From assembly GCA_964549495.1 (NCBI GenBank), contig CAZJWJ010000005.1, positions 2,071 through 66,070 of the forward strand: a stretch of DNA of 64,000 nt. The letters are read 5' to 3'. The stretch comes from an uncultured Anaerolineales bacterium. GTDB lineage: Bacteria; Chloroflexota; Anaerolineae; Epilineales; Epilineaceae. This document shows, one piece after another, positions 27,772 through 40,214 of this stretch. Position numbers and translations under genes: made by a program. Numbering within the stretch: position 1 is the first letter of the stretch; each line of letters begins with the position of its first letter. A model generated the notes under the pieces. The model was not told the origin of the DNA, did not search any database, and saw only the letters and a program-made list of their open reading frames with translations.

Positions 27772-29163
27772 TCAGGGCGCCCCGAGCAGGCTTTCGAAGA
27801 GCGGGGTCTGGTTGAGCAGGTAGACGCGATGGAGTCGTTGGCCGTCCACACCCAAGCCTCCGGCGATCCAGATCTCGCGCCCGGCGTTGCGCAGGTCGGC
27901 GCCCGCGCCCTGGCGCGGCGTCTGCAGCGGACCCGGGATCGGACGCCAGCCGGCCTCGCCGCCCAAATCGAGCGTCAGGGCGGCCGCTTCATCGCGGTCT
28001 TGGGTTCCGCCGACCAGGTAGATGCGACGCAGCACCGACACGCCCAGCGCGGCCTGACCGGCCCGGGCCGAGGGCAGCTCCTGACCTGTATCGTCGAGCC
28101 AAGCGGGGCTCGAACCCGGGCGGAAGATCCAGTGGTTCCGTTGCGGCCGGCCGCCTTCGTCCCGACCTCCGAGGACATGGACTTGCTCGTCGACCACCGC
28201 GGCGGCCAGCCCGGAGCGCGGGCGAGCCATCTCGTCCTCGATCTGCCAGGCATCCTCGCCCAAGCGCAGGGAGTAGACCCTGCGGCTGGCGCTGTCGGGG
28301 GAAGCTCCCGAGCGCCCGCCGAAGAGGTAGATCCGGCCGCGACCGGGCAGATGCGCCAGCGCGTAATCGCAGCGCGGCTCCGGCAGCGGCGGACCCTCGC
28401 TCCAACGACCGGACTCCGTATCGAAGAGCTCCACGGTGGTCAGCGCTCGGCCGCTGGCATCGCAGCCGCCCGGGACGACGATGAATCCCTGTACCGCGAC
28501 CGCCTGGATGTCGCGCACGGCCGTCGGCTTCTCGGCCAATTCGTCCCAGACCTGGACGATGCCGCGGGTGTAGCGCAGCGTGTCGGCCAAGACCCCGTCC
28601 TCGTCCTCGCCCCCGATGGCGTAGAGCCCGTCGGCGAAGACCAGCGCCAAGCCATCGCGCTCGCTGGGCAGATAGCCGGCCGGCGTCCAGGGCTGACCCG
28701 GCTGCGCCGTCGGTTCGGGAGCCGGCGTGGCGGTCGCCGAGCCGCGCAGGACCCGATCCCCGAAGGCCCATCCCATCGCGGCGATGACCAGCAGGAGCAG
28801 GAGCAGCAGGCCACCGAGCAGCCGCACCGTGCGCCGGGATTGCTGCCGGGCGCGCTCGAGCTCCTCGGCCAGGCGGCGCGCCGCCTGACGCTGGGCCTCC
28901 TGCTCCTCGGCGCGCGGCGAATCCTCATCGCTGTCCTCGACGGGGCCGAGGTGGATCAGCCCGTGCTCGAGTGCACGCCGCACCGCCTCGGTCCGGTTGC
29001 CCGTGCCGAGCTTGCCGTTGATGTTGGAGAGGTGCTTCTTGACGGTGGCCTCGGAGATCGACCGCTCGTGGGCGATCTCGCGATTCGTCGCGCCCGTGGC
29101 GACGAGCTCGAGGATGGCCAGCTCCGTCTCGCTCAGTGGCACCGGACTGGGACTGTCGGACAT
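27772..29163 (-). CDS. membrane-anchored LuxR-family HTH regulator fused to an extracytoplasmic Kelch-type beta-propeller
   Basis: N-terminal LuxR/GerE HTH (ETELAILELVATGATNREIAHERSISEATVKKHLSNINGKLG). One TM helix (LLGGLLLLLLLVIAAMGWAF). Then ~300 aa of Kelch-like repeats (YAIGGED… IVVPGG… YLFGG… HVLGGRDE… YLVGG… WIAGG). Confidence 0.6.
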   Translation of the reverse strand: MSDSPSPVPLSETELAILELVATGATNREIAHERSISEATVKKHLSNINGKLGTGNRTEAVRRALEHGLIHLGPVEDSDEDSPRAEEQEAQRQAARRLAEELERARQQSRRTVRLLGGLLLLLLLVIAAMGWAFGDRVLRGSATATPAPEPTAQPGQPWTPAGYLPSERDGLALVFADGLYAIGGEDEDGVLADTLRYTRGIVQVWDELAEKPTAVRDIQAVAVQGFIVVPGGCDASGRALTTVELFDTESGRWSEGPPLPEPRCDYALAHLPGRGRIYLFGGRSGASPDSASRRVYSLRLGEDAWQIEDEMARPRSGLAAAVVDEQVHVLGGRDEGGRPQRNHWIFRPGSSPAWLDDTGQELPSARAGQAALGVSVLRRIYLVGGTQDRDEAAALTLDLGGEAGWRPIPGPLQTPRQGAGADLRNAGREIWIAGGLGVDGQRLHRVYLLNQTPLFESLLGAP

Positions 29164-29254
29164 CGAGAGGCCTTGATGTGGATGGAAGACTCGGCTTCGA
29201 CGGACCCGCCGCGGACAGATCCCGAAAGGCAGCGAGACCGGGCGAGGCGCAAGC

Positions 29255-29300
29255 GCCGATTATACCACGTCCCATCCCGCCCTCCGCTGACCGAGCCCGG
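29255..29300 (-). promoter_or_regulatory. putative promoter of the LuxR-Kelch gene (-10 TATAAT on minus strand at 29259..29264)
   Basis: Minus-strand sequence GGTATAATCG lies ~95 nt upstream of the start codon. The -35 is weak. Confidence 0.35.
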
Positions 29301-29307
29301 ATCGCGC

Positions 29308-30381
29308 CTAGGGCGCGCCTCCATCCGAGGAGGCCACCAGGTCGAGCCGGCAAACGCAGCGCCGACAGGTCGGGTCCCGCGATGGATCGAAGGCCGCCTC
29401 GAAGGCCCGGGCCCGGGATCCGGCGAGGATCTCCAGCAGGCGCCCATCCCGCGGCCAACGGCCGACCGATCGGTGGAAGAAGCAGGGCCGGACCGTCCCG
29501 TCGGCCTCGATGACGGCGCTGACCAGCGGGGCGTTGCAGCGGCCCGCCTCCGGCAGCCGGCCCGCCTCCAGCGCCCTGAAATGCTCCACCAGACGCGCTC
29601 GGAGCTTGGCCGGGGTCTCGACGGTCGAACGGGCCAGCCGCGGATCGGCCTCGATCGCGGCGATCTGCTCGGCCAGGGCGTCGATCTGCGCGCCGACCGG
29701 CAGCAGCGCGTTCCGCCTCGTCGAGGACCATTCCTCGCCGCGCTGAAAGGCGGAGCTGTGCGCATCGACGGCCAGGAAGGAGACACGATCGATGCCCAGC
29801 TGCCCGGCCGCCTCCAGGGCATCGACCAGGCTGGTGCAGTTGCCGCGCTGGACCGTGTAGCGCGCCGTGATCGCCAGGCCCGGCGACAGCGAGCGGAGGG
29901 CCTCGAGGCCATCGGCGAGATGATCGAAAGCCCCGGCCTGGCCGCGGATTCGATCGTGGATGTGGGGAGGACCATCCAGCGAGATCACCAGATCGTCCAC
30001 GCGTCGCGCGATCTCCCCGGCCTCTTCGACCAAGCCCGGGCCGCTGGAGAGCAGGCTCAGCCCCACGCCCCGACGGTGCAGCGGATCGACGAGGGTCCAC
30101 AGATCGGGGTGGAGCAGCGCCTCGCCACCGGTCAGCACCAAGCGGCGCAGGCCGGCCGCCAGCCAGTCCTCGGCCTCGGCGGCCAGCGGCTCGGAGCGCA
30201 AGTGATTCCCGCTCCGGTCGCGCCAGATCCCGCACATGCGGCAGCGCCAACAGCAGCCGGAAAAGGGCGACATGAGCAGGATCGGCAGGCGGGGCAGGCC
30301 GGCCGGCCGTCGCGGCCTGCCGGACGGTACCTGCTCGAGTCGTCCATCCGAACGCGGTTGGGGACCGAGCCGGGTGCTCAT
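29308..30381 (-). CDS. radical SAM enzyme with C-terminal SPASM/twitch-like Cys cluster
   Basis: Start at internal ATG 30381 (MSTRLG…) overlapping the upstream stop as ATGA; an alternative ATG is at 30273. CxxxCxxC at GCCWRCRMCGIW. C-terminal auxiliary-cluster cysteines (CNAPLVSAVIEADGTVRPCFFH … DPTCRRCVC). The upstream ~310 codons of ORF 29308..31320 are a shadow of the neighbouring gene. Confidence 0.7.
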   Translation of the reverse strand: MSTRLGPQPRSDGRLEQVPSGRPRRPAGLPRLPILLMSPFSGCCWRCRMCGIWRDRSGNHLRSEPLAAEAEDWLAAGLRRLVLTGGEALLHPDLWTLVDPLHRRGVGLSLLSSGPGLVEEAGEIARRVDDLVISLDGPPHIHDRIRGQAGAFDHLADGLEALRSLSPGLAITARYTVQRGNCTSLVDALEAAGQLGIDRVSFLAVDAHSSAFQRGEEWSSTRRNALLPVGAQIDALAEQIAAIEADPRLARSTVETPAKLRARLVEHFRALEAGRLPEAGRCNAPLVSAVIEADGTVRPCFFHRSVGRWPRDGRLLEILAGSRARAFEAAFDPSRDPTCRRCVCRLDLVASSDGGAP

Positions 30382-31400
30382 GCGCCGGGGCCGGCCTCCG
30401 GCTCGGCCTCCGCGACGCGCCGGCCGACCAGCAAGGGCAAGTCGGCCGACTCGCGACCGCTCTGCAGGCGGCGCCGCAGCCGGTGAAAGCGCCAGGACCA
30501 TCCGCGGCGCGGTCCGGGTCGGGCCCAGCGCAGCGAGAAGGCCTCCGCCCACCGCGGCAGGTCCGACTCCAGCAGGTACTCCCGGCTGCCCAAGGCATCG
30601 GAGGCGAAGCCGTAGCGCGCTTCGAAGGCCGAGCGTCGCGCCTGGACCATGGCGCGTCCGGCCTCCGGCGAGCGGTAGACCGGCGAGTCCATGATGACCA
30701 GGCTGCCGCCGGTCGCCATCACGCGCAGCGCCTCGCGCAGGCTGGAGGCCGGCTCCGGCGCGTAGTGCAGGCTGGCGTTGAAGACCACCACGTCGGCTCG
30801 AGCCGCGACCAAGGGCAGCCGATCGAAGTCCGCCAGCAGACAGTCGAAGGGGGCCTCGCGGTCCGCCCCGAGGCGAGCCGCCACGCCCAGTCCGACCCGG
30901 GCGTGATCCGAGAGGTCGATGGCCAAGGGGCGATGCCCCTCGAAGGCCAGGCGACGGCTCAGCCAGCCGACGCCGGCGCCCAGATCGAGCACGCGCAATG
31001 ATACCGCGCCGGCGCGGGCGCGCAAGACATCCAGCAGGCAGTCGTAGCTGGCCGCGCGCTGCCACCACTCCCAGGCAAAGCGCATCTCCGCGCCAGGCCA
31101 GGGCAGGTCGCGCGCCCGCTCCACGCCGCCCTCGCCGCGCCCCTCGGCGATCCGGACCTGCTCGTACTCCTCGAGAAATCGCCGCTGGGCGACCGTCAGG
31201 TCGCGGAAGTCGACGGTGCCGGTGGACTCCGAACGAGACCAGCGCCGGCCGCAGCCAGGGCAGACCAGGCCATCGGCGGCCGCCGAGAGCGCCCCGAGCG
31301 GGCGGCGGCATTCGGGGCATGCCAGTTGCGGAAACCGAAAATCGTCGTCGCCGGATGCGGGCCTGGCGGGCCTGGGGCCAGCTTCGTCGATGGGGCTCAT
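30378..31400 (-). CDS. SAM-dependent methyltransferase with N-terminal Trm112-like zinc-ribbon
   Basis: Start at internal ATG (MSPIDEAG) overlapping the upstream stop (ATGA); exact coordinate ±1 nt. Zn-ribbon LACPECRRPLG … LVCPGCGRRW. Class I MTase motif I VLDLGAGVGWL and post-I AIDLSD. Confidence 0.7.
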   Translation of the reverse strand: MSPIDEAGPRPARPASGDDDFRFPQLACPECRRPLGALSAAADGLVCPGCGRRWSRSESTGTVDFRDLTVAQRRFLEEYEQVRIAEGRGEGGVERARDLPWPGAEMRFAWEWWQRAASYDCLLDVLRARAGAVSLRVLDLGAGVGWLSRRLAFEGHRPLAIDLSDHARVGLGVAARLGADREAPFDCLLADFDRLPLVAARADVVVFNASLHYAPEPASSLREALRVMATGGSLVIMDSPVYRSPEAGRAMVQARRSAFEARYGFASDALGSREYLLESDLPRWAEAFSLRWARPGPRRGWSWRFHRLRRRLQSGRESADLPLLVGRRVAEAEPEAGPGA

Positions 31401-32212
31401 GCGCTGCGCTCCAATTCGAGCAGGTAGTGATCCGATAGCCGCGCGGCCAGCGGCAGGCCGGCCAGCCGGCGCTCGACGACCAGGCGCCGCCGCAGTCGCT
31501 CCGGCCGGCGCTCGAGCGCTCCGGCCAAATCGGTCGGGGGCAGGAGCAAGCCCAGCGCCCGAAGCCCGCGCGGCGCGAAGCGCGGGCCGAAGGCGGCCCG
31601 AACGCGCTCGGGGCTCGGATAGCGCAGCCACAAGTCCCGCCCGCCTACCTTGGCGCGAATCGGCCTCGGACCGAGACGACGCCAGGCGCGGCGGTCGAGG
31701 CGGATTCCGAAGCCCAACAGCTCGAGCAGGCAGAAGGGGCCCATCACGACCAGAACGATCCGGGCACCGGGCCGCATGCGTTCGGCAAGCCGGCATCCCA
31801 GCGCCGGCAGATCGGCGATGCAGTTGATGACCCCGAAGTTGCTCAGCAGCCCGTCGAAGGGCCCGTCGAAGGCGGAGAGCTCGCCGAGCCGCTCGGCCGG
31901 GACGTGGTGGAAGCGCGGCCGCAGGGACTCGGGCATGCTGGCGCAGCGCGCCCGGGCCCGCTCCAGCATGGCCGACGAGGCGTCCAGGCCGACGACCCGG
32001 CATCCGCGGCTGGCCAGCCAATGCGCATCCACGCCGCTGCCACAGCCCAGATCCAGGATGCGATCACCGGCGGAGAAGCTAGCGGCCGAGCGGCGCCAGA
32101 CCTCGCCCCGCAAGGCCCGACCCAGTGCGCGCTCGGTGAAGCGCACGTCGTAGTCGGCCGCCAGGCCGTCGAAGGCGGCCGGCTCGATCCGCTGCTCAGG
32201 CTTCGGGGTCAT
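31397..32212 (-). CDS. class I SAM-dependent methyltransferase (Methyltransf_11/25-like)
   Basis: Start at MTPKPEQRIEP (ATG 32212). Motif I ILDLGCGSGVDAHWLA, motif II VVGLDAS, LLSNFGV. Confidence 0.75.
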   Translation of the reverse strand: MTPKPEQRIEPAAFDGLAADYDVRFTERALGRALRGEVWRRSAASFSAGDRILDLGCGSGVDAHWLASRGCRVVGLDASSAMLERARARCASMPESLRPRFHHVPAERLGELSAFDGPFDGLLSNFGVINCIADLPALGCRLAERMRPGARIVLVVMGPFCLLELLGFGIRLDRRAWRRLGPRPIRAKVGGRDLWLRYPSPERVRAAFGPRFAPRGLRALGLLLPPTDLAGALERRPERLRRRLVVERRLAGLPLAARLSDHYLLELERSA

Positions 32213-33602
32213 GGACGCTCCGCCGCATCCGGCGCTTGTACCAGGCGATCTCCAGCGCGCCGCGCAGCAGGGCCGGCCAGGCGCGCGGATGCCGGCCGGC
32301 ATCCAGGCGATCGCGCTGCGCCAGCTCGGCCTGCAAGCGGCTGGAGACCGCGCGGTAGTAGGCCGGGCCCGGCCGGCCGAGGACGGCGTGATCGCGGTCC
32401 GATCCCTCGGCCCAGGGCCGTCGGAGCCGCACCTTGTCGGCCACGCTCTGGTAGTAGGGCGTACCGCGGATGGGATAGGCCACCGTGGTCAGCACCCGAT
32501 CGGCGCGGACGCGCTTGACCTCGCGGATGGTGGCCTCGATGTCCTGGCCGGTCTCCCCCTCGTAACCCCACATCACGAAGAGGCCCACCGAGATGCCCTC
32601 CGCTTGGAGCAGGCCGGTCGATCGGCGCACCTGCGCCGCGGTGGTCCCGCGCTCCATCGCATCCAGCACCGGCTGCGATCCGCTCTCGGCTCCCAACCAG
32701 ACCCGAAAGCAGCCCAGCTGCGCCAAGAGCCGCGCCGTCTCCGCATCGACCCGATCGGCGCGGGTGATGCATTCGAAGGGGATTTGCAGGCCCCGCTGCT
32801 CCATCTCGCCCGCGAAGTCGCGCAGCCAACGCCGGCTGGCGGTGAAGACGTCATCGGCATACCAGAGCTGGTCCGGCGCGTAGCGCGCGCGGATCCAGGC
32901 CACCTCCTCGGCCACGTCCCGCGGCGAGCGGCGGGCATGGCGATGCCCGAAGACGGCGTGGCTACACCAGCGACAGCGCCAAGCGCAGCCCCGCGCGGTG
33001 ACGAGGTTGAGCGAGCCGCGGCCATGCTGCTCGCGCCAGCAATCGATGTAGGGCTGCAAGTCGATGGCCTCGCGGTCGGGCCAGGGCAAGCGGGCTAAGT
33101 CGCGCATCGGAGGGCGGGCCGGCTCGCGCTGGATGGCACCCGCCCTGTCGCGCCATGCCAGCCCCGCGATGCCCTCCAGGCTCGCATCGGGCTGGCTCGA
33201 CCAGCGATCCAGCAGCTCGGTCAGGCCGATCTCGCCCTCGCCGATCACGACCGCATCGGCGCCGGCATCCAGGTACTCCTCCACGTATTCGGAAGGATCC
33301 GGGCCGCCCACCACCACGCGCTGGCCCCGCTCTCGGCCTTCGGCGATCAGCTCCAGGGCCGCGGCGCGGGTCATCATGTTGGCATAGATGCCCAGCACGG
33401 GTGCAGCGACCGCCCCCAGCCGGCGCCGGTGCATCCGGCGATCCAGGAAGGTGCCATCGACCACCGTCACCGACCGCCCGGCGCGGCGCAGCCAGGCCGA
33501 GAGCGAGAGCAGCCCCAGCGGGGGGTAGGGGCGCACATGCCGCTGCTCGGCCAGGTCTTCGCATAGGCGATGCCCGTGGGTCAGCAGCAGGTCGACGCTC
33601 AT
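32196..33602 (-). CDS. B12-binding-domain radical SAM enzyme (class B)
   Basis: Start ATG 33602 (MSVDLLLTHG), 1 nt after the upstream stop. N-terminal cobalamin-binding Rossmann region (RPYPPLGLLSLSAWLRRAGRSVTVVDG). CxxxCxxC at GCAWRCRWC. Confidence 0.8.
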   Translation of the reverse strand: MSVDLLLTHGHRLCEDLAEQRHVRPYPPLGLLSLSAWLRRAGRSVTVVDGTFLDRRMHRRRLGAVAAPVLGIYANMMTRAAALELIAEGRERGQRVVVGGPDPSEYVEEYLDAGADAVVIGEGEIGLTELLDRWSSQPDASLEGIAGLAWRDRAGAIQREPARPPMRDLARLPWPDREAIDLQPYIDCWREQHGRGSLNLVTARGCAWRCRWCSHAVFGHRHARRSPRDVAEEVAWIRARYAPDQLWYADDVFTASRRWLRDFAGEMEQRGLQIPFECITRADRVDAETARLLAQLGCFRVWLGAESGSQPVLDAMERGTTAAQVRRSTGLLQAEGISVGLFVMWGYEGETGQDIEATIREVKRVRADRVLTTVAYPIRGTPYYQSVADKVRLRRPWAEGSDRDHAVLGRPGPAYYRAVSSRLQAELAQRDRLDAGRHPRAWPALLRGALEIAWYKRRMRRSVHDPEA

Positions 33603-33603
33603 C

Positions 33604-35262
33604 CTAGCCGGACCCACCGTTCGCCGCGCCAAAGCGCGTCGGCTGCTCGCTGCGCTCCGCCCGCTCGCGCCGGGCCATCTCGCGCCATCGGTCGCCGATC
33701 GCACGAAGCTCGGCGCGGCTGGCCTCCTGCGCCTTCCGGCTGAGCGGACCCGACCTCCCGTCCTCCTCGGCGATCGAGGTCACCTCGATCAGATCTCGGC
33801 GGCGGAGCAGGGCTTCGTGCTCGCAGTGGAGCAGCGCGTGCAGCTCGCGGTAGAAGGCGCTGCGATAGCTGCCCTGGAAGAGCATGGCCAGATCCTGGCT
33901 GTCCCGCCAATGCCGGCGTGCGCCGAGCTGCTCGGCCACGCGCGCATGAAAGGGCGTGCCCGGCAGCGGATAGCTGACCGAGACCCCGATGGCGTCCGGC
34001 AGGCATCGTCGCATCAGCTCCGCCGTGGCTTCGATCTCCGCCCAGCCCTCGCCCGGATAGCCCAGCTGCAGAAAGAAGGCCACCCGGATCCCCTGCGCGC
34101 GCAAGGTCCGGGTCGCGCGCTCTACCTGCTCGACCCGGATGCCCTTCTCCATCGCATCCAGGATGGTCTGGGAACCGCTCTCCACCCCCAGCCAGAGCTC
34201 CTCGCAACCCGAGCGCGCCAGCTGCTCGGCGTAGTCCTCGTCCACCCGATCGACCCGGCTCTGCGCCACATAGGGCAGCCGCACGCTCCGGGCTTCCAGC
34301 GCGTCGGCAAACTCGCGCACCCAGTCCGCTTGCAGACCGAGCACGTCATCGACGAACCAGAGCCCGTCCGGCGCCTGCTCGGTCGCGATCTGGGCCACCT
34401 CGTCGGCCACCGACTCGGGCCGGCGTTGGGCATAGCGACGGCCCCAGATCGGCCGGGCGCACCAGTTGCAGGCGTAAGGGCAACCGCGCGAGGCAGCCAG
34501 GTTCAGCTGGAAATGTCCGTGCGCCCGCCGCCATCGCCGGCGGTAGGCCTCCATGTCGACCAAGTCGCGCGCCGGCAGCGGGAAGCCTTCCAGGTTGCGC
34601 GCCGGGGGACGCGCGGGACCGCGCAGGAGCGCGCCGTCCGGCCCGGTCGTGACGCTGCCGGCGATGCGCTGCCATGCCATGCCTTCGGCCGATTTTCGCG
34701 CCTCCTCGGCCGAGCTCACCGGCTCCTCGACCGGACCCCGCGCCGCGATCGGCAGGCTTTGGACCGCCTCCAGCAGGCTCCATTCGGCCTCGCCGGTCAA
34801 GACCGCGGTGGCCCCGGCCTCCAGCCAAAGCTCGGGCCGATCGCTGGCATCCGAGCCGGCCACCAGGCAGGGCAGGCCCCGCGCGCGGGCGGTCCGCAGC
34901 ATCTCGAAGCCCGCCTCGCGCATCCGCGACAGGCACATCTTGGACAGGAAGTTGAAGCTGTCCTCGAAGAGGGCGACCAGACGCGGCCGGCTGGCCTCCA
35001 GGGCCGCCTCGAAGGCCTCGGGGCCCGGGGCGAGCATGGCATCGAAGAGCGCCACGCGCAGCCCGGCCCGTCTCAGGATCGAAGCGGCGTAGAGCGTGCC
35101 CAAGGGCGGGTAGGGCCGCATCCGCGCGACCTGCTTGGGATCCAGGGCCATGTAGAGCGTGTGGCCGAGCAGCACGTCGACCGGGCCGCCGGCGTCGCCG
35201 CGACAATGCGGCGCGAAGCGGCGGATGGCGGGCGACCGGCGGATGGCGGGCGATCGACTCAT
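33604..35262 (-). CDS. B12-binding-domain radical SAM enzyme (class B), paralogue of 32196..33602
   Basis: N-terminal B12-binding region (RPYPPLGTLYAASILRRAGLRVALFDA). CxxxCxxC at GCPYACNWC. Start overlaps the upstream amidohydrolase stop (ATGA). Confidence 0.8.
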   Translation of the reverse strand: MSRSPAIRRSPAIRRFAPHCRGDAGGPVDVLLGHTLYMALDPKQVARMRPYPPLGTLYAASILRRAGLRVALFDAMLAPGPEAFEAALEASRPRLVALFEDSFNFLSKMCLSRMREAGFEMLRTARARGLPCLVAGSDASDRPELWLEAGATAVLTGEAEWSLLEAVQSLPIAARGPVEEPVSSAEEARKSAEGMAWQRIAGSVTTGPDGALLRGPARPPARNLEGFPLPARDLVDMEAYRRRWRRAHGHFQLNLAASRGCPYACNWCARPIWGRRYAQRRPESVADEVAQIATEQAPDGLWFVDDVLGLQADWVREFADALEARSVRLPYVAQSRVDRVDEDYAEQLARSGCEELWLGVESGSQTILDAMEKGIRVEQVERATRTLRAQGIRVAFFLQLGYPGEGWAEIEATAELMRRCLPDAIGVSVSYPLPGTPFHARVAEQLGARRHWRDSQDLAMLFQGSYRSAFYRELHALLHCEHEALLRRRDLIEVTSIAEEDGRSGPLSRKAQEASRAELRAIGDRWREMARRERAERSEQPTRFGAANGGSG

Positions 35263-36530
35263 GCCGGCCGCCTCGTCGCCGCTCCGGCCGGCTCCAGATG
35301 GAATCCAGGCTCGATGAGTCCGGAAGGCACCAGGGGCTCGAGCAGTCCTGCCGCGATGCGACGCGGACGACCATCCAGTCGGGCCCGCAGCAGCGGATCC
35401 CGGGCCGGGTCGAGCCGCTCGGCCAGCTCCGGCGCGGCCAGCATCACCCTGCCGGCGCGCAGGATCAGTTGCAGGTCGGAGCGCCGGCTGGCCAAGAGCT
35501 GCTCGATGGGCGAACGCCCCTGGTCGGCCAGGACGATCAGGTCGGCCGGCGCGCCCGGATCGATACGGCCGGCCCGGGACCGGCCGCAGAGCGCGGCGGC
35601 GTCCAGCGTGACCATCCGCAGCAGCTGCAGGGGGCGCAAGCGCCCGTCGGCGGCCGCGTGCCCGAGCTCGTCCAAGAGATCGCGCGAACCGGTCAGCCTA
35701 GCATCGCTGCCCAGGGCCAGGCGCCGTGCCGCCGCGAAGTCGACGGGATCGGCGGCCCGGCCGAAGAGCCGCCGGTTGCTGGCCGGGCACCAGATCATCC
35801 CGCAGCCCGCGGCCAGCGCCCGGCCGCGGCGCGCGGCATCCAGGCCCACGGCGTGCACCAAGCGGGTGCGCGGGTCCAGCCCCCCGAGCGCCTCGATCCG
35901 ATCGAAGTCCCGCCGCGCCCGGCGCCCGATGCCCTCGGCCGCGTGGACGACCCAGGGCCGACCCGGCCGCCGAGCCGCGAGCCCCTCCTCGAGCCCGGGC
36001 CCATAGCGACCAGCCAGACTGGGCGAGTGCACCCAACCCGGCGAGTCGAGCACCCGCAGGGGAAAGTCCCGGCGCTCGAAGACGCTCAGCCACGGATCGT
36101 GGTGCAGCACGCTGGTCACACCGGAAATCAGGTTCTTCACGGCGCCATGCCAGGCGCGCTGGGGCATCGGTATCCGGCGGAGCGCGGCGTAGACGTCGCT
36201 GGCCAGGAGGCGGCGCATGTCGGCGATCCAGTCGTCGGCATGACGGTAGGCCCCGGCCGCCGGCCCGGGCGGAAAGAGGTTGTGCCCCAGGTGGTCGTGG
36301 GCGTTGACCAGGCCCGGCAAGAGCCAATGACCAGAGAGATCGAGGCGGTGGGCGCGCCGGCCGATCCGGGCCAGCGGCTGGATCCGACCCGCCTCGATCA
36401 AGAGGCGCCCTCGGCGGAACCTGCCGGTCACCGGATCCACGATGCCCGCGCCTTCGATCAGCAGCTGTCTCAGGTGCCTGCCTCCCGTCGATCGCCGGTG
36501 CCCGGCTCGGGCACCGCTGCGACGTCGCAT
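35259..36530 (-). CDS. amidohydrolase-superfamily deaminase (MtaD/DadD/SsnA-like chlorohydrolase family)
   Basis: Start placed at internal ATG 36530 (MRRRSGARAG…). LLIEGAGIVDP … LPGLVNAHDHLGHNLF is the metal-binding HxH motif of the amidohydrolase fold, resembling MTA/SAH/5'-deoxyadenosine deaminases. The N-terminal ~220 codons of ORF 35259..37190 overlap the divergent methyltransferase and are rejected. Confidence 0.65.
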   Translation of the reverse strand: MRRRSGARAGHRRSTGGRHLRQLLIEGAGIVDPVTGRFRRGRLLIEAGRIQPLARIGRRAHRLDLSGHWLLPGLVNAHDHLGHNLFPPGPAAGAYRHADDWIADMRRLLASDVYAALRRIPMPQRAWHGAVKNLISGVTSVLHHDPWLSVFERRDFPLRVLDSPGWVHSPSLAGRYGPGLEEGLAARRPGRPWVVHAAEGIGRRARRDFDRIEALGGLDPRTRLVHAVGLDAARRGRALAAGCGMIWCPASNRRLFGRAADPVDFAAARRLALGSDARLTGSRDLLDELGHAAADGRLRPLQLLRMVTLDAAALCGRSRAGRIDPGAPADLIVLADQGRSPIEQLLASRRSDLQLILRAGRVMLAAPELAERLDPARDPLLRARLDGRPRRIAAGLLEPLVPSGLIEPGFHLEPAGAATRRPA

Positions 36531-36734
36531 GGTACCGATGCTCGGCAGGCAGGTCCATTCGGAGGCCGGCCGGCAGGTCGGCCCAGCAGATACCGGCCGC
36601 CCCGCCGAAGCCGTGGCATCCTTGTGCACATCTCGGGCATGAGATGGCTCGGCCGAGCCCTCGGCAGCGCTCGGTAGCGCCCTACCTGGATGCCCACCCG
36701 TCCCATCGGTCAGCAGCCGGAGCGAGAGCAGCGA

Positions 36735-37487
36735 ATGGAAGTCGCTCGAGACATCGCCGAGCGCCGAGCGCTCCGCCGCGTGCGCGAGGCCTACGCCGCC
36801 TGGAGCGCGACCTACGAGCGGAGCGGGCACAATCCGCTGACGGCGGCGGCCGAAGAGCTGCTGGGCCCGTGGCTTCGCGATCTGCGTGGACAACGCCTGC
36901 TCGATTTGGCCTGCGGCGACGGCCGCGTGCTCGGTCTGGCGCGGCAGGAAGCGACGCGCTTTCGGGCCGGACTCGACTTCAGCCGCGGCATGCTGCTGGC
37001 CGCGCGTCGCCGCCATCCCGATACGCCCTTGATCGAGGCGGAGCTGTGCGCGCTGCCCCTGGCCGCCGAGAGCTTCGATCGGGTCGCGCTGAGCCTGGCG
37101 CTGAGCCACTTGCCGCGCATCGAGGTCGCCGTCTTTGAAATGGCGCGCGTCTTGGCACCGGGCGGCCGGCTCCTGCTGATCGACCTGCATCCGGATGCCG
37201 CCGAGCGCGGTTGGACGCGCAGCTTCCGCGATGCCGCGGGCCGCAGGCGCAGGGTCGACTGGTGGCCCCAGGATCTGGACCGGATCGAGGCGCTCTGCCG
37301 CGCGGCCGGCCTGGAGATCCTGCGCCGACGCGAGCGAGCCCTCGATCCGACGCGCCTCCCGCCGGACGCGCCGCCTTCGGCCGGGCGGGGCCTCGCGCTC
37401 TACGCCATCGAAGCCCGGAAGCCGGCCGAGCAGAGCAGCGATCAGCGCTCGCCGTCGGCCAGCCCATTGAATCCGATCGGCAGGTAG
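36735..37487 (+). CDS. class I SAM-dependent methyltransferase, divergent from the radical-SAM cassette
   Basis: ATG 36735 with GGAGCGAGAG RBS 9 nt upstream. Motif I LLDLACGDGRVLGLA, post-I GLDFSRGML, LAPGGRLLLIDL. Confidence 0.7.
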   Translation: MEVARDIAERRALRRVREAYAAWSATYERSGHNPLTAAAEELLGPWLRDLRGQRLLDLACGDGRVLGLARQEATRFRAGLDFSRGMLLAARRRHPDTPLIEAELCALPLAAESFDRVALSLALSHLPRIEVAVFEMARVLAPGGRLLLIDLHPDAAERGWTRSFRDAAGRRRRVDWWPQDLDRIEALCRAAGLEILRRRERALDPTRLPPDAPPSAGRGLALYAIEARKPAEQSSDQRSPSASPLNPIGR

Positions 37488-38626
37488 ATCGGCGCACCGT
37501 CGAGATCCTCGCCCACCGCCAGCGACCAGGCATCGGCCAGATAGCGCACGTCACCGCCCTCGCCGCGCGTGCCGCCGTAGACCAGCATCCGCGACTGGCT
37601 CGGGTCCCAGTCCGCCGCATGCCCGGCGCGCGCGCCGGGCCCTTGGCCGTCGAGCGGCAGTCGCGCCTCGACGCTTTCCCAGGCGGGGCTCTCGGGATGG
37701 TCGTAGTCCAGCCGCCAGATCTCGGCCAGGTCCGTGGCGCCGTCCTCGCCGGCCACGTAGCCCCCGTAGAGCAGGAAGGCGGACTGCCCGGTGGCAAAGA
37801 CCATCGTGGCGCCGATGCGGGCGCTGGGCGCCGGCGCGCCGTCCCGCAGGCCGAGCGGCTGCCAGGCGTCCGCCCGATCGATCGACGCCAGGTCGACCCG
37901 CCAGGCAGCGGCAACCGCCGCACCGGTCTCGTCCTGACCGCCGACGACCAGCAGGTCGCCGCTGGCGGGATCGACGGCATAGGCCTGGTGCAGCAGCCGG
38001 AAGGGAACGGCCGGCAAGGCCTGCCAAGACCCGGGGGCCGCCGAGAGGTCCAAAGCCCAGACCTCGTCGCTGAGGCTGTTGGTGCCGTAGCGATCCCCTC
38101 CGAAGAGGATGGCCCGATCGCGTTCGGCATCGTAGACCAGTCCCGGGTACCACAGCGCCAGATCGGTCTCGGTCTCGACCTGGGTCCACTCGCCGCTGGC
38201 CAAATCGTAAAGGTAGGTCTGACCGTCCTGGCAATCGCAGATCAAGAGCAGGCGGTCGTCATCGGCATCCAGGATGGCGCGGGCACCGATCAGGCCGCGG
38301 CCGGCCTGGCGCGAACGGGGGATCGATCCCGTCTGCTCCAGATCCGCCCATTCGCTTGCGACAGCGCCCAGCTCGAGGCTTCGAGCCAGGCCCGGTGCGC
38401 CGAAGCCGGACTCGCCACCGATCAGCAGCCACCGGTCCTCGGCGGCGAGCAGGCTGCTGTGTCCGGCCAGGGGCAGATCCGAGGGCAGACCGGACCATCG
38501 GTAGTCGACGTCCTCGTGCTGCAGCTCGGCGCCTGCCGAAGGCGGGAGGGCGGCGAGCAGGGCGAGGAGCACGAGGATTGCGGCCGGCAAGGCCGGTCGG
38601 CCTGCGGAGACGGAAGGCTGGGTCAC
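37442..38626 (-). CDS. secreted Kelch-repeat beta-propeller protein
   Basis: GTG 38626 with GGAGGA RBS 6 nt upstream. Signal peptide (AAILVLLALLAALPPSAGA). Kelch-like repeats (LLIGGES…, LYGGYV…, LVVGGQDE…, ILFGGDR…). The upstream part of ORF 37442..39190 overlaps the PQQ-dehydrogenase gene antisense and is rejected. Confidence 0.55.
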   Translation of the reverse strand: MTQPSVSAGRPALPAAILVLLALLAALPPSAGAELQHEDVDYRWSGLPSDLPLAGHSSLLAAEDRWLLIGGESGFGAPGLARSLELGAVASEWADLEQTGSIPRSRQAGRGLIGARAILDADDDRLLLICDCQDGQTYLYDLASGEWTQVETETDLALWYPGLVYDAERDRAILFGGDRYGTNSLSDEVWALDLSAAPGSWQALPAVPFRLLHQAYAVDPASGDLLVVGGQDETGAAVAAAWRVDLASIDRADAWQPLGLRDGAPAPSARIGATMVFATGQSAFLLYGGYVAGEDGATDLAEIWRLDYDHPESPAWESVEARLPLDGQGPGARAGHAADWDPSQSRMLVYGGTRGEGGDVRYLADAWSLAVGEDLDGAPIYLPIGFNGLADGER

Positions 38627-38819
38627 GGCGGGTCCTCCAATCCATGTGGGTGGGCATCGTCGGTCGCCGGGCGAGCGCCGGCGACAGGCGCTAGGATTGT
38701 AGGGCATGCGGCGCGTCGGTGGGAAGAGGCATCGGCGCAACCCTGCCGAGGCGGGCCGTGCCGACCCGTCCGCAGCCACCCAGGCATCCGATCGGCGCAA
38801 ACCAGGGAGAATGGTATCG

Positions 38820-40214
38820 ATGATACGCAGGACCACCGGCAACGCTGTTCCGGCCCGACTTGTCGGGCTCGGGATGGCCATCGTGCCGCTCGTCTTGGCG
38901 CTGGCTTGCCGGACCACCGGTACGGACCCGGCCAACCCCGGAGACGCCTCGATCGCCACCTCCGCTCCGCTCGGCACGGCAGCGAGCCAAGGCATGGCCA
39001 TCGAGTCCGAGGGCGCGGCGACCGAAGCCAGCCCGGTCGAGGCCGACGCCACGGCGTCCACCGTCCCCAGCTCCTCGGCCAGCGCCACCCCGACGGCCCT
39101 GGAAGACCTTCGCATCGAGCTCTTCGAGTTGGCCAGCGGCTTCGACTCGCCGCTCTTGGTCACCCATGCCCCAGACGGCTCGGGCCGCATCTACATCGTG
39201 GAGCAAGCGGGCCGCATCTACTCGATGGATCTCGAGGACCCCGAGGGCTCGCGCAGCATGGAACTCGACATTCGCGAGCGGATCGAGGACGGGGCCAGCG
39301 AGCAGGGACTGCTGGGCCTGGCCTTCCACCCGGACTTCGAGCGCAATCGCCGGCTCTTCGTCAACTACACGGATCTGGCGGGTGACACAGTGGTGGCCGA
39401 GCTGCGCGCGCTGCCCGGCACCGACGGCTTCGACCCGGCCAGCGAGGAGACCATCCTGGCCTTCGAGCAGCCGGCGGGCAACCACAATGGCGGACACCTG
39501 GCCTTCGGCCCCGACGGCATGCTCTTCGTCGCCACCGGCGACGGGGGCGGCGCCGACGACCGCTACGGGCATGGCCAGAACCCCGGCAGCCTCTTGGGCA
39601 AGATCCTGCGCATCGACGTCGATGCGCGCCAGGACGGGGCGGCCTACGGCCTGCCGCCGGACAACCCCTTCCTGGACCGCGAAGGCTATCGCCCGGAGAC
39701 CTGGGCTTGGGGGCTGCGCAACCCTTGGCGCTTCAGCTTCGACCGGCAGACCGGCGACCTCTACATCGGCGACGTCGGACAGGCGCGCTGGGAGGAGATC
39801 GACCTCATGCCGGCCGGCAGCGCCGGCTTCAACTTCGGCTGGCCCATCTTCGAAGGGCGGGCCTGCCAGCGTGACGATGGCGCCTGCCAGGACCCGAGCC
39901 TCCAGGCGCCCATCCTGGTCTACGAGCACCAAGCCGGGGCCTGCTCGGTGACCGGTGGCTACGTGTACCGGGGGCCGGCCGAGGATGGCGGAGCCGCGTT
40001 GCAGGGCGCCTACCTCTACGCCGACTACTGCTCGGGCCAGATCCGGGTGGCACGCGAGGAAGCGGGCGGCTGGCGCTCGCGCGTGATCCTGGAGACCGAG
40101 CTGGACATCAGCAGCTTCGGCCAGGACGAGGCGGGCCGGCTCTACCTGAGCGACCTGGATGGTGGCTCGATCTACCGCATCCGTCCCGGACAGGCCGAGG
40201 AGCCTGGGCTATAA
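38820..40214 (+). CDS. PQQ-dependent soluble sugar/sorbosone dehydrogenase (lipoprotein)
   Basis: ATG 38820 with GGAGA RBS. Lipobox LVLALAC. sGDH-family motifs LVTHAPDGSGRIYIVEQAGRIY, EQGLLGLAFHPDF, NHNGGHLAFGPDGMLFVATGDGG. Confidence 0.85.
   Translation: MIRRTTGNAVPARLVGLGMAIVPLVLALACRTTGTDPANPGDASIATSAPLGTAASQGMAIESEGAATEASPVEADATASTVPSSSASATPTALEDLRIELFELASGFDSPLLVTHAPDGSGRIYIVEQAGRIYSMDLEDPEGSRSMELDIRERIEDGASEQGLLGLAFHPDFERNRRLFVNYTDLAGDTVVAELRALPGTDGFDPASEETILAFEQPAGNHNGGHLAFGPDGMLFVATGDGGGADDRYGHGQNPGSLLGKILRIDVDARQDGAAYGLPPDNPFLDREGYRPETWAWGLRNPWRFSFDRQTGDLYIGDVGQARWEEIDLMPAGSAGFNFGWPIFEGRACQRDDGACQDPSLQAPILVYEHQAGACSVTGGYVYRGPAEDGGAALQGAYLYADYCSGQIRVAREEAGGWRSRVILETELDISSFGQDEAGRLYLSDLDGGSIYRIRPGQAEEPGL

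Follow-up and report, generated by a model that had tools for sequence, protein, structure and literature searches.

A widespread radical-SAM and methyltransferase cassette from an uncultured Anaerolineales bacterium, with a possible role in surface-glycan tailoring

A compact block of six genes, all read from the minus strand (29308-36530), and a methyltransferase gene that diverges from it (36690-37487, plus strand) are intact and together make up a slimmed-down form of a modular operon that is very widespread. They lie in the window, i.e. the whole 64,000-nucleotide stretch of contig CAZJWJ010000005.1 that was analysed. The cassette is built from familiar enzyme families and its product is unproven; we tentatively propose, with a probability of about 45%, that it tailors a surface glycan or glycoconjugate in the cytoplasm.

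Gene layout and enzyme families

The features discussed here are the following:

27772-29163, minus strand: protein with a LuxR-type HTH, a TM helix and a Kelch beta-propeller (Pfam GerE and Kelch)
29308-30381, minus strand: radical-SAM enzyme with a twitch-like (partial SPASM) auxiliary-cluster domain, "twitch rSAM", 357 aa (Pfam Radical_SAM 52.8 bits, SPASM 33.4 bits)
30378-31400, minus strand: MT2, methyltransferase with an N-terminal four-cysteine Zn ribbon, 340 aa (Pfam Methyltransf_11 49.6 bits)
31397-32212, minus strand: MT1, class I SAM methyltransferase, 271 aa (Pfam Methyltransf_25 53.9 bits); the first 17 nt overlap rSAM-b
32196-33602, minus strand: rSAM-b, B12-binding (class B) radical-SAM enzyme, 468 aa (Pfam Radical_SAM 69.5 bits, B12-binding 43.7 bits)
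33604-35262, minus strand: rSAM-a, B12-binding (class B) radical-SAM enzyme, 552 aa (Pfam Radical_SAM 70.2 bits)
35259-36530, minus strand: amidohydrolase of the cytosine/adenosine-deaminase/chlorohydrolase (cog0402-type) clade, 423 aa (Pfam Amidohydro_1)
36531-36689, intergenic: 159 bp (from the gene coordinates) between the operon and the divergent MTdiv, presumed promoter region
36690-37487, plus strand: MTdiv, divergent class I SAM methyltransferase (Pfam Methyltransf_11 62.5 bits)

The six packed genes and their divergent partner carry the domains and motifs assigned to them in the initial annotation, and in-frame GC3 is 0.86-0.89 for every one of the six. All domain calls hold in Pfam, including Methyltransf_11/25 matches on all three methyltransferases, and two are marginally under the cut-off: the B12-binding match of rSAM-a (31.5 bits, the cut-off of 32.1 being exceeded by rSAM-b) and the Trm112p match of MT2 (20.6 bits, cut-off 22), where a CPxC...CPxC ribbon is visible and is conserved among the orthologues that retain the N-terminus. 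In operon order, amidohydrolase first, the junctions are ATGA, a 1-nt gap, a 17-nt overlap, ATGA and ATGA. The gap had been read correctly, but there are three ATGA overlaps and not four: the MT1 start lies in the ATGA string at 32212-32209, but rSAM-b does not read the TGA of that string in frame and terminates at 32198-32196 instead. The deposited gene call is the same as ours for MT1. The deposited amidohydrolase (380 aa, TTG start at 36401) truncates conserved N-terminal strands, and the deposited twitch rSAM (309 aa from M49) loses two of the three motif cysteines. The true start of MTdiv may be an internal Met at about 36735. A scan of the presumed promoter region found no sigma-70-like match, terminator or Rfam element.

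On re-translation the CxxxCxxC motif is present in all three radical-SAM enzymes, and it is conserved at about 100% among 120 homologues of each. It reads CPYACNWC in rSAM-a and CAWRCRWC in rSAM-b (C206, C210 and C213, 100% conserved). These two are paralogues (37% identity across 454 aa), and the homologues of rSAM-b make up more than 6,900 90%-clusters. In the twitch rSAM the motif is C43-x3-C47-x2-C50, and C282, C300, C339, C342 and C344 are equally conserved. The Pfam match bears out its description as a SPASM enzyme in part; however, there are only five conserved extra cysteines (Cx17C...Cx2CxC), therefore we regard it as twitch-like, with one auxiliary cluster. Among solved structures BlsE comes closest to it (80.8 bits by profile, TM 0.67/0.72 by structure comparison); BlsE is a sugar-nucleoside decarboxylase whose substrate is cytosylglucuronate. 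The likeness is moderate, with 19% identity and a TM of about 0.7; sactipeptide maturases score nearly equal, and the best Foldseek E-value belongs to SkfB.

The active site of the amidohydrolase follows the pattern HxH/HxxE/H/D, with H78, H80, H143, H144, H196, E199 (of HxxE), H226 and D276 invariant in 120 homologues. The best PDB relatives are the adenosine/MTA deaminases 4gbd/4dyk and the MTA/SAH deaminase 4f0r, and the AF2 model has a pLDDT of 92. By motif and structure the active site is of the nucleoside/nucleobase-deaminase type; the label "MtaD/DadD-like" is right at the level of the clade, the protein being an equivalog of neither.

Distribution and relation to described pathways

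The cassette had been called an orphan, which does not stand up to comparison with other genomes. The gene-neighbourhood check that had been suggested finds the same genes together at over 50 loci in several phyla; the arrangement is far beyond chance. Orthologous clusters are present in Acidobacteriota (where they are commonest), Chloroflexota, Armatimonadota, Bacteroidota, Actinomycetota and Proteobacteria; versions of the cassette occur in thousands of soil-bacterial and environmental genomes, and the two cultured hosts are Dyella soli and Roseateles saccharophilus. Two further Anaerolineae-type genomes carry the whole cassette in synteny. Two loci, from Terriglobia and Thermoanaerobaculia, have orthologues of 6 of the 7 genes, the missing one being MT2, which occurs in other Terriglobia loci. 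Orthologues of rSAM-a from Anaerolineae, Terriglobia, Thermoanaerobaculia and Dyella are 45-61% identical, and the order rSAM-a, rSAM-b, MT1 is kept across phyla.

With the twitch rSAM as anchor, 52 GTDB species loci show the modular character: at least one B12-radical-SAM gene is found in 40, at least one orthologous methyltransferase in 42 and the amidohydrolase in 30, and it adjoins the twitch rSAM in 27 of these 30. Across genomes the clusters contain 0-5 B12-radical-SAM paralogues each. MTdiv is present in 29 of the 52 loci, and in Terriglobia, Thermoanaerobaculia, Dyella and Roseateles its orthologues are internal to the operon; it belongs to the conserved set and is no bystander.

The statement that the cassette fits no described pathway agrees with our searches: none of the seven proteins, nor the extra paralogues from other loci, reached an NCBIfam equivalog cut-off, and we found no publication on the operon. 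The hopanoid enzymes HpnP/R/J/H, BchE, ladderane enzymes and Tes do not fit, with scores far below membership level (e.g. HpnR 57-77 against a cut-off of 650, HpnH 25 against 225; Tes/GDGT-MAS, at 18 bits, is the weakest of 22 PDB matches).

Genomic context and the candidate substrate

The initial annotation saw no glycosyltransferase or transporter. This is true of the window: there and in its two syntenic relatives no glycosyltransferase, flippase or polymerase lies within about 10 kb. It is not true of the orthologous cassettes: these are intermingled with genes of the GT4, GT-C, Wzx, Wzz and LCP types, an indication of a glycan substrate. A survey of 214 ORFs next to the cassette in 50 loci gives GT4 glycosyltransferases as the top Pfam family (20 members), with Bac_transf, Wzy_C, GT87, Wzi and MurJ-like recurring too; by class, GT4, Wzx/Wzy/Wzz, sugar transferases and GT-C enzymes recur. 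GT4 genes are interspersed among the cassette genes in four loci (L020, L008, L024 and L028), and in L024 a PMT/GT-C gene comes immediately after the radical-SAM gene. The cassette is followed in L085 by genes for a Wzx flippase and two GT4 enzymes, and in L086 by those for a polysaccharide deacetylase, a GT2 and a GT87. The Dyella soli locus reads FdtA, acetyltransferase, DegT, Wzx, GT2, Wzz, then MT1, amidohydrolase, MTdiv and a B12-radical-SAM gene, then two GT4 genes, with an rSAM-a orthologue close to the module. In an Acidimicrobiales MAG (locus L089) the MT2 orthologue is fused to a LytR_cpsA_psr domain, with a TM helix as linker; the LytR-CpsA-Psr family ligates polyprenyl-linked glycopolymers onto the cell wall.

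We prefer a surface polymer to a peptide because the cassette is often found inside cell-surface polysaccharide gene clusters. We infer a non-peptide substrate, most likely a sugar unit, nucleotide-activated or polyprenyl-linked, of a cell-surface glycan or glycoconjugate, and the reactions and step order below in the same way. Besides the GT4/Wzx/Wzz context, the LCP fusion, the BlsE relative, the deaminase-clade amidohydrolase and the broad conservation support this reading. The B12-dependent enzymes would generate a radical that takes a hydrogen off an unactivated carbon; methylcobalamin would then supply the methyl group to the resulting substrate radical; a related B12-radical-SAM rearrangement would be an alternative to C-methylation. 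The three class I methyltransferases could add O- or N-methyl groups, and the twitch rSAM might carry out a radical oxidation, decarboxylation or epimerisation of the sugar. For the amidohydrolase we speculate on two roles. Firstly, it might clear inhibitory adenosyl by-products (5'-deoxyadenosine, SAH or MTA), which the proposed chemistry would make in quantity. Secondly, it might hydrolyse an amidine or amino group on an intermediate.

Several points count against a glycan. The window and its two relatives have no glycosyltransferase nearby, and the stereotyped 10-gene operon of Terriglobia is usually without an internal one. HprK-like/ScmC-like kinase and NTP_transf_5 genes, whose families also appear as tailoring enzymes in peptide (lasso/SCM-type) clusters, recur beside the cassette. 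The likeness of the twitch rSAM to BlsE is moderate, with sactipeptide maturases close behind. The association with glycan genes could in part be background, polysaccharide loci being common in Acidobacteriota, and we know of no cobalamin-dependent radical-SAM enzyme characterised on an O-antigen or EPS sugar.

Other candidate substrates and the downstream Kelch gene

It is unlikely that the cassette tailors membrane lipids, i.e. that the B12-dependent enzymes methylate or cyclise alkyl chains and the auxiliary-cluster enzyme forms C-C links in branched tetraethers/iso-diabolic acid or hopanoids. No fatty-acid, ether-lipid, polyprenyl or squalene-hopene genes were recurrent among the 214 neighbours, and the cassette occurs in Dyella, Roseateles, Chitinophagaceae and Acidimicrobiales, which to our knowledge make no such lipids. 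The top partial NCBIfam matches include HpnJ, HpnR and the ladderane-lipid B12-radical-SAM enzymes, but these, like HpnH, all score far under cut-off, and the position of Tes/GDGT-MAS at the bottom of the PDB matches points the same way. The attraction of a lipid lies in the parallel with archaeal clusters of Gms (SPASM) and Grs/Gmm (B12): GDGT-modifying clusters combine one SPASM/twitch enzyme with several B12-radical-SAM enzymes (PMC11214058, PMC13459092), which is the mix of the cassette. Acidobacteriota, the phylum richest in the cassette, make iso-diabolic acid and brGDGTs without Mss (PMC13159169), and some loci adjoin BamA/TamB. However, the twitch rSAM has a single auxiliary cluster whereas Gms and Tes are reported with two (PMC13459092), the comparison with Gms/Grs/Gmm being one by description.

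Slightly less probable is a soluble small molecule, such as a cofactor or a metabolite that is of nucleoside type or resembles an aminoglycoside. The deaminase-type hydrolase and the BlsE-like enzyme would act on a nucleoside-sugar core, methylated by the B12-radical-SAM enzymes and methyltransferases. Aminoglycoside and nucleoside pathways combine B12-radical-SAM enzymes (GenK, GenD1, AprD4), twitch enzymes (BtrN), GT4s, deacetylases and N-methyltransferases. This enzyme mix, AprD4 as second-best PDB match of rSAM-b, BlsE as top structural and profile match of the twitch rSAM and the adenosine/MTA/cytosine-deaminase clade of the amidohydrolase all speak for it. Against it, the recurrent neighbours include neither a resistance gene nor a dedicated exporter, and no scaffold enzyme such as 2-deoxy-scyllo-inosose synthase or a nucleoside-forming enzyme; the Wzx/Wzy/Wzz/LCP context is one of polymer assembly, and wide, vertical-looking conservation fits a role in cell structure rather than an antibiotic.

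Least probable, by a small margin, is a ribosomal peptide or particular protein, encoded at another site and modified as in polytheonamide (PoyB/C/E) or in MCR methylation by MgmA. The RiPP option raised initially proved weak, since no conserved small ORF (20-100 aa) was found in the intergenic DNA of 55 loci and the window, the 214 neighbours include no PqqD/RRE, YcaO, lanthipeptide or leader-peptidase families, and the motif of the twitch rSAM begins at residue 43, leaving no space for an N-terminal RRE domain. What favours a peptide is the SkfB match, partial NCBIfam matches to the RiPP C-methyltransferases ApyD and rSAM_ocin_1 and to ScmE/ScmF, the HprK/ScmC-like kinase, NTP_transf_5 and ABC-exporter genes that flank some loci, and the nearest solved structure to rSAM-b, 9ccb, which is cited in the MgmA paper (PMC11796369) and is probably MgmA, a protein Gln C-methyltransferase. 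This last match reaches just 56 bits, and at 468-552 aa the B12-dependent enzymes are shorter than the RiPP C-methyltransferase models of about 600 aa.

The Kelch protein is encoded co-directionally, 145 bp downstream of the cassette. No Kelch genes were found recurring beside the cassette in other phyla; the protein is possibly a lineage-specific regulator, its membership of the cassette being uncertain. The window, L001 and L090, the three Anaerolineae-type loci in synteny, all have this gene next to the cassette, and the synteny there extends to housekeeping genes (QueA, RsgA).

Gene content and boundaries of the cassette

The initial annotation described six closely packed minus-strand genes with a further methyltransferase running away from them. 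The genes are listed below, where rSAM stands for a radical-SAM enzyme and MT for a class I SAM methyltransferase; each of the six minus-strand genes has a GC3 of 0.86-0.89 in frame and is backed by homology.

Genes of the cassette
36530..35259, minus strand, amidohydrolase
35262..33604, minus strand, B12-rSAM 'a' (rSAM-a)
33602..32196, minus strand, B12-rSAM 'b' (rSAM-b)
32212..31397, minus strand, methyltransferase MT1
31400..30378, minus strand, methyltransferase MT2, with an N-terminal four-cysteine Zn ribbon
30381..29308, minus strand, auxiliary-cluster rSAM (the last gene)
36690..37487, plus strand, methyltransferase MTdiv, divergent from the six-gene run

Pfam and GC3 bear out the six-gene run and the domains named in it, the Trm112-like ribbon of MT2 marginally so, and the CxxxCxxC motifs on which the domain calls hinge are present and essentially invariant in 120 homologues per family. 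The junctions, read from the sequence, are along the cassette an ATGA overlap, a 1-nt gap, a 17-nt overlap and two more ATGA overlaps, so that the gap was described correctly and three rather than four of the overlaps are of the ATGA kind. At the rSAM-b/MT1 junction the ATGA holds the MT1 start, but rSAM-b does not read the TGA within it in frame.

The G+C content of the window is about 70%, so long spurious ORFs are plentiful on either strand. An 885-aa ORF at 27829-30486 (plus strand), antisense to the last rSAM gene and to a neighbouring LuxR-Kelch gene, has the wrong GC3 pattern and was rejected as an artefact of the 70% G+C; a long ORF produced by GC3-based calling in one orthologous locus (L050) was ignored as spurious. 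Two deposited calls appear too short. That of the last rSAM (309 aa) begins at M49, inside the CxxxCxxC motif, and loses two of the three cluster cysteines, and that of the amidohydrolase (380 aa) begins at a TTG at 36401 and loses conserved N-terminal strands; the orthologue alignments fit ATG starts at 30381 and 36530, respectively. An Rfam search of the whole window gave no riboswitch, cobalamin and SAM types included, and no other element, and promoter and terminator scans of 27.5-38 kb gave no match.

Radical-SAM enzymes, methyltransferases and amidohydrolase

The last rSAM has five invariant extra cysteines, C282-x17-C300 (with Gx4C) and C339-x2-C342-x-C344, and lacks the seven-cysteine SPASM motif of two auxiliary clusters (Cx9-15Gx4C...Cx2Cx5Cx3C...C); the Pfam SPASM model scores 33.4 bits. 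The pattern fits a twitch-like domain with a single predicted auxiliary cluster, and of the SPASM/twitch cluster initially proposed we retain the twitch type and drop the full SPASM type, as there are five extra cysteines and not seven. With a profile built from four orthologues (22 PDB matches), BlsE ranked by far first among the solved relatives with 80.8 bits, ahead of SkfB (48) and MoaA (35). The AlphaFold2 model (pLDDT 86) also has BlsE as its best fold match (TM-score 0.67/0.72, rmsd 3.7 A), followed by SkfB, sactisynthases, anSME, DesII and viperins. BlsE (PDB 7vob), the cytosylglucuronate decarboxylase of blasticidin S, is similar to the last rSAM in size (about 330-360 aa), and both proteins have a single C-terminal auxiliary-cluster region and no N-terminal peptide-recognition domain. 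However, their identity is only 19%, the profile alignment is limited to residues 30-165, and the NCBIfam BlsE model, which has a cut-off of 400, gives a score of 28.5 bits. The enzyme has the predicted characteristics of a twitch-domain rSAM of the BtrN/BlsE/MoaA type.

The two B12-rSAMs are paralogues (37% identity) with the Fe-S motifs CPYACNWC (rSAM-a) and CAWRCRWC (rSAM-b) and Pfam Radical_SAM scores of 70.2 and 69.5 bits, respectively; the three motif cysteines of rSAM-b are 100% conserved among 120 homologues. The B12-binding domain PF02310 scores 43.7 bits in rSAM-b against a cut-off of 32.1, and 31.5 bits (E=1.7e-7), marginally under this cut-off, in rSAM-a. Both proteins bear the marks of class B enzymes, namely a CxxxCxxC core and a predicted B12-binding domain. 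NCBIfam cut-offs were reached by none of the seven cassette proteins, nor by any extra B12-rSAM, accessory protein or glycosyltransferase of the related loci. The best partial matches of the B12-rSAMs (BchE, PhpK, HpnJ, a ladderane-cluster enzyme, ApyD and the MCR glutamine methylase) lie at 75-124 bits, compared to cut-offs of 360-750. The solved structure nearest to rSAM-b is 9ccb (56 bits), cited in the MgmA paper (PMC11796369), which we infer to be MgmA itself; AprD4, CysS and OxsB come next. The CPEC...CPGC ribbon of MT2 is conserved in the orthologues that keep the N-terminus, and the Trm112-like model PF03966 scores 20.6 bits on it, under the cut-off of 22.

In the amidohydrolase the catalytic set H78, H80, H196, E199, H226 and D276 (HxH, HxxE, His, Asp) shows no variation among 18 orthologues or among 120 homologues. 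By profile and fold (model pLDDT 92) the protein falls with the Pseudomonas aeruginosa adenosine/MTA deaminase (4dyk/4gbd), the Chromobacterium MTA/SAH deaminase and TM0936, and further with isocytosine and 8-oxoguanine deaminases and triazine hydrolases, the TM-score being only ~0.65. The designation MtaD/DadD-like is upheld at the level of the clade by motif, profile and fold but not at the level of the equivalog, since the DadD model PRK07228 gives 22.7 against a cut-off of 522; the best NCBIfam match is 51.5 against 532. The MTA/SAH/5'-deoxyadenosine deaminases (MtaD TM0936, PA3170, DadD) and the aminofutalosine deaminase DR_0824 share the fold and the metal/catalytic residues of the cassette enzyme and are among its top matches by profile and fold. 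The cassette enzyme differs from them in its tiny NCBIfam scores and in its central region (residues ~72-177), which aligns to no solved member and contains the family-specific invariant residues R125, N133, H143-H144 and W166-x-H168-S169. These deaminases have a logical tie to the by-products of radical-SAM chemistry. Because B12-rSAM methylation makes one 5'-deoxyadenosine and one SAH per turnover, the amidohydrolase may scavenge both compounds, or it may hydrolyse an amidine or amine on a pathway intermediate.

Distribution and genomic neighbourhood

The cassette was at first called an orphan, a description that has to be abandoned as homologues are very numerous and the same order is found in other genomes. 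At the least, rSAM-b has more than 6,900 clusters at 90% identity (E<=1e-3) and the last rSAM more than 5,500 (E<=1e-30). Two further Anaerolineae-type contigs (loci L001 and L090) keep the order amidohydrolase-a-b-MT1-MT2-rSAM with MTdiv on the other side, so the gene order of the initial annotation is conserved there; the window and both contigs also have in common the flanking LuxR-Kelch protein, a ~700-aa unknown protein, a GH42-like protein, QueA and RsgA. On this synteny the window probably derives from a Chloroflexota/Anaerolineae MAG.

With the last rSAM as anchor, a survey restricted to a single genome for each GTDB species yielded 52 full-length orthologues (36-46% identity) in Terriglobia, Bryobacterales, Acidobacteriaceae, Thermoanaerobaculia, Holophagales, Anaerolineae, Chthonomonadia, Eisenbacteria, Chitinophagaceae and Burkholderiales. 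The cassette is a modular operon: the number of B12-rSAM paralogues varies from 0 to 5 per locus (at least one in 40 of the 52 loci), and at least one orthologous MT is present in 42. If the paralogue groups are denoted B12a to B12g, Terriglobia have the stereotyped order B12c-B12d-B12a-B12b-MT1-MT2-B12e-MTdiv-amidohydrolase-rSAM, while Thermoanaerobaculia, Holophagales and Chthonomonadia have other paralogues instead (B12f, B12g). Mapping of the window proteins and the extra paralogues onto the loci shows that the window contains a reduced, seven-gene version and that MTdiv, correctly noted as divergent, is a true member of the set and not a bystander. The amidohydrolase occurs in 30 of the 52 loci, in 27 of them directly beside the twitch rSAM, and in a few Bryobacterales genomes the two genes form a pair on their own. 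This tight pairing suggests that the amidohydrolase may have a scavenger or pathway-step role. A search with the amidohydrolase also revealed the cultured hosts Dyella soli and Roseateles saccharophilus, the latter with the order rSAM-MTdiv-amidohydrolase-B12f. We found no description of this operon in the literature; the cassette is real and uncharacterised, and its component families are familiar.

The isolated pairs (L042:8820-10942, L048:8682-11020, L030 and L038; Bryobacterales/Terriglobia) have no B12-rSAM or MT within 10 kb and lie among unrelated genes (M48 peptidase, DinB, sigma-54). Two loci, one of them from Chthonomonadia (L005:4891-6342), have a DUF6687 protein (132 bits in Pfam) between MTdiv and a B12-rSAM, and it may be a further accessory member.

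Several neighbours in the window deserve mention. The LuxR-Kelch protein (27772-29163, minus strand) has an unusual domain layout, in which a LuxR/GerE HTH is followed by a coiled or charged stretch, a single TM helix and, at the end, a Kelch beta-propeller. Its gene adjoins the cassette in the window and in both syntenic loci of Anaerolineae type (52% identity in L090), and the protein could be a membrane-anchored regulator that responds to a signal from outside the cytoplasm. Another Kelch protein is encoded at 37442-39190 (minus strand). A 737-aa protein (25493-27706, minus strand), conserved in L001 and L090 (38% identity), has a probable signal peptide, long Pro/Thr-rich linkers (e.g. PPPTATSAVSPTTPPTVPVTPPTPTITPTPT) and no Pfam match; such linkers are typical O-glycosylation sites, so this protein could be a glycoprotein. 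None of these three recurs in other phyla, and the gene order shared by the three related genomes runs on into housekeeping genes, so they are uncertain candidates for cassette members or substrates. Beside the Kelch protein and near the cassette, 38706-40214 (plus strand) encodes a probable PQQ-dependent sugar dehydrogenase, named after its syntenic counterpart in L001 (Pfam GSDH), where the arrangement is kept; a link to a sugar substrate of the cassette is speculative.

Pfam scans covered 214 non-core ORFs, pooled from 50 loci, that lie in the cassette or at most 4 kb away from it. GT4 glycosyltransferases are the commonest family (20 members, a raw tally within these flanks), followed by NTP_transf_5 (at least 8) and HprK-like kinases (7); other recurrent families are bacterial sugar transferases, Wzy_C, GT87, Wzi and MurJ-like flippases. 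Glycosyltransferase, flippase, polymerase or ligase genes, as in surface-polysaccharide loci of the Wzx/Wzy or LCP type, lie beside the cassette in nine loci (L003, L008, L020, L024, L028, L085, L086, L089, L091). GT4 genes are interleaved with those of the cassette, for instance in L020 (B12a-MT1-B12e-MTdiv-GT4-rSAM-amidohydrolase-GT4), a PMT/GT-C enzyme and GT4 follow the rSAM in L024, a Wzx flippase and two GT4 follow the cassette in L085, and a polysaccharide deacetylase, GT2 and GT87 do so in L086. In Dyella soli, FdtA, an LbH acetyltransferase, Acetyltransf_6, DegT, Wzx, GT2, an unannotated gene and Wzz precede MT1-amidohydrolase-MTdiv-B12f, after which come GT4-GT4 and, further on, a B12a orthologue, NTP_transf_5, an HprK-like kinase and an ABC exporter.

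The Acidimicrobiales MAG JBJXGF010000235.1 (L089:6042-8372) encodes a 776-aa fusion of an MT2 orthologue (42% identity over 314 aa to MT2 of the window) to a LytR_cpsA_psr domain, laid out as Zn ribbon, class I MT, Pro-rich linker, TM helix and LytR_cpsA_psr; the gene adjoins B12b and MT1 orthologues, GT4, an HprK-like kinase and NTP_transf_5. The LytR-CpsA-Psr family moves polyprenyl-linked glycopolymers onto the cell wall. The earlier remark that no glycosyltransferase or transporter is visible is valid for the window, where, as in L001 and L090, no glycan genes were found near the cassette, but not for many orthologous loci, among which GT4, GT-C, Wzx, Wzz and LCP genes occur. Taken as a whole, the neighbourhood supports a glycan substrate rather than a peptide or a lipid.

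An HprK/ScmC-like kinase and NTP_transf_5 (PF14907) are found beside the cassette in L011, L012, L021, L023, L051, L085, L086, L089 and L091, and in some Terriglobia loci they follow straight after the twitch rSAM in the same direction. The same pair is known as tailoring enzymes of lasso-peptide clusters.

Possible substrates and comparison with known systems

What is established for the cassette is limited to its gene content, its motifs, its conservation and its genomic setting. From these we propose, with a probability of roughly 0.45, that it is a cytoplasmic tailoring set for a surface glycan or glycoconjugate. The B12-rSAMs a and b would carry out C-methylation or another radical change at unactivated carbons, O- or N-methylation would fall to MT1, MT2 and MTdiv, the twitch rSAM would perform a BlsE-, BtrN- or DesII-like radical transformation of a sugar, and the amidohydrolase would remove adenosyl by-products or trim a nitrogen substituent.

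It is instructive to compare the B12-rSAMs with GenK and GenD1 (gentamicin) and MoeK5 (moenomycin), cobalamin-dependent C-methyltransferases that act on sugars or lipid-linked saccharides. Both groups combine an N-terminal B12-binding Rossmann domain with a CxxxCxxC barrel, both (the cassette in many of its orthologous loci) are accompanied by GT4-type glycosyltransferases and class I MTs, and methylation at an unactivated carbon is their presumed common chemistry. The differences are threefold. Firstly, there is no detectable orthology, and the best matches to curated families (BchE, PhpK, HpnJ and ladderane models) stay at 75-124 bits where 360-600 would be required. Secondly, the setting, where glycan genes are present, is that of housekeeping-like surface-polysaccharide loci and not of antibiotic clusters. 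Thirdly, a single operon may contain up to five distinct B12-rSAM paralogue groups.

Lipid tailoring is an improbable rival. In archaeal tetraether clusters Gms (a SPASM rSAM) occurs together with the B12-rSAMs GrsA/B and Gmm (PMC11214058, PMC13459092), the same mix of enzyme classes as in the cassette, an analogy that is real at class level, and Acidobacteria have no known membrane-spanning-lipid synthase (PMC13159169); for these two reasons we keep this alternative. However, genes for fatty acids, ether lipids, isoprenoids or hopanoids do not recur among the 214 neighbours, and the cassette is also present in Proteobacteria, Bacteroidota and Actinomycetota. Gms-type enzymes are reported with two auxiliary clusters and the last rSAM has one by prediction, the recurrent neighbours are glycan and not lipid genes, and the class I MTs and the deaminase-type hydrolase are additional. 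Tes (7tol, GDGT-MAS type) is the last of the 22 PDB matches of the last rSAM, with only 18 bits, and was rejected on score and context. A reading of higher impact, in which the 10-gene operon of Acidobacteria would supply branched tetraether (brGDGT) lipids with their methyl branches or rings, is very improbable and less likely than the glycan version.

A soluble nucleoside- or aminoglycoside-like metabolite is marginally less probable than a lipid; the pathway of BlsE differs, in that no other bls genes occur with the cassette. Modification of a peptide or protein comes close behind. All ORFs of 20-100 aa outside large genes in 55 loci and the window were clustered, and no recurring family was found, only edge artefacts and near-identical duplicates from the same genome, which agrees with the earlier failure to see a precursor-peptide ORF. 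Among the 214 neighbours there is no PqqD/RRE, YcaO, lanthipeptide or leader-peptidase family, and the CxxxCxxC of the last rSAM begins at residue 43, leaving no room for an N-terminal RRE domain. These points make a RiPP unlikely, even if a precursor encoded elsewhere is conceivable.

As the initial annotation held, no described pathway matches. The hopanoid set (HpnH/HpnJ/HpnP/HpnR/HpnI/HpnK) follows a similar logic, with an rSAM, B12-rSAMs, a glycosyltransferase and a deacetylase/hydrolase working on one scaffold, but the scores are below the cut-offs (HpnJ ~101 vs 578, HpnR 57-77 vs 650, HpnH 25 vs 225), no squalene-hopene cyclase (shc) or hpn gene is found in any locus (214 neighbours), and this identity was rejected. 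So were bacteriochlorophyll synthesis by BchE/BchQ/BchR (BchE 75-124 vs 481; no bch genes in the gene survey of the window or the related loci) and, on score and context, a ladderane identity.

Within the surface-glycan reading we speculate on a more specific version, which is unlikely, although clearly less so than any of the rivals: an unrecognised, widespread pathway in which B12-rSAMs C-methylate or rearrange lipid-linked or nucleotide-activated sugars of surface polysaccharides, the twitch rSAM and the hydrolase forming a dedicated two-enzyme step. We know of no earlier case of B12-radical-SAM chemistry in the tailoring of O-antigen, EPS or cell-wall glycans, so this would be the first, and dominant soil bacteria (Acidobacteriota, Chloroflexota) would carry heavily C-methylated, hitherto undescribed sugars. 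Many operons rich in radical-SAM enzymes have no assigned product; this cassette stands out by its thousands of 90%-identity clusters for each core enzyme, its presence in at least six phyla dominating soils, its modularity (0-5 B12-dependent paralogues per locus) and its repeated location inside surface-polysaccharide loci. If glycan tailoring is correct, cobalamin-dependent radical methylation would join the repertoire of bacterial surface-sugar modification, the soil cobalamin supply would be tied to cell-envelope chemistry, and new sugar structures would be predicted, with relevance to soil aggregation, phage/immune recognition and biomarker chemistry. Since Dyella soli and Roseateles saccharophilus are in culture, the question can be addressed by genetics and glycan analysis.
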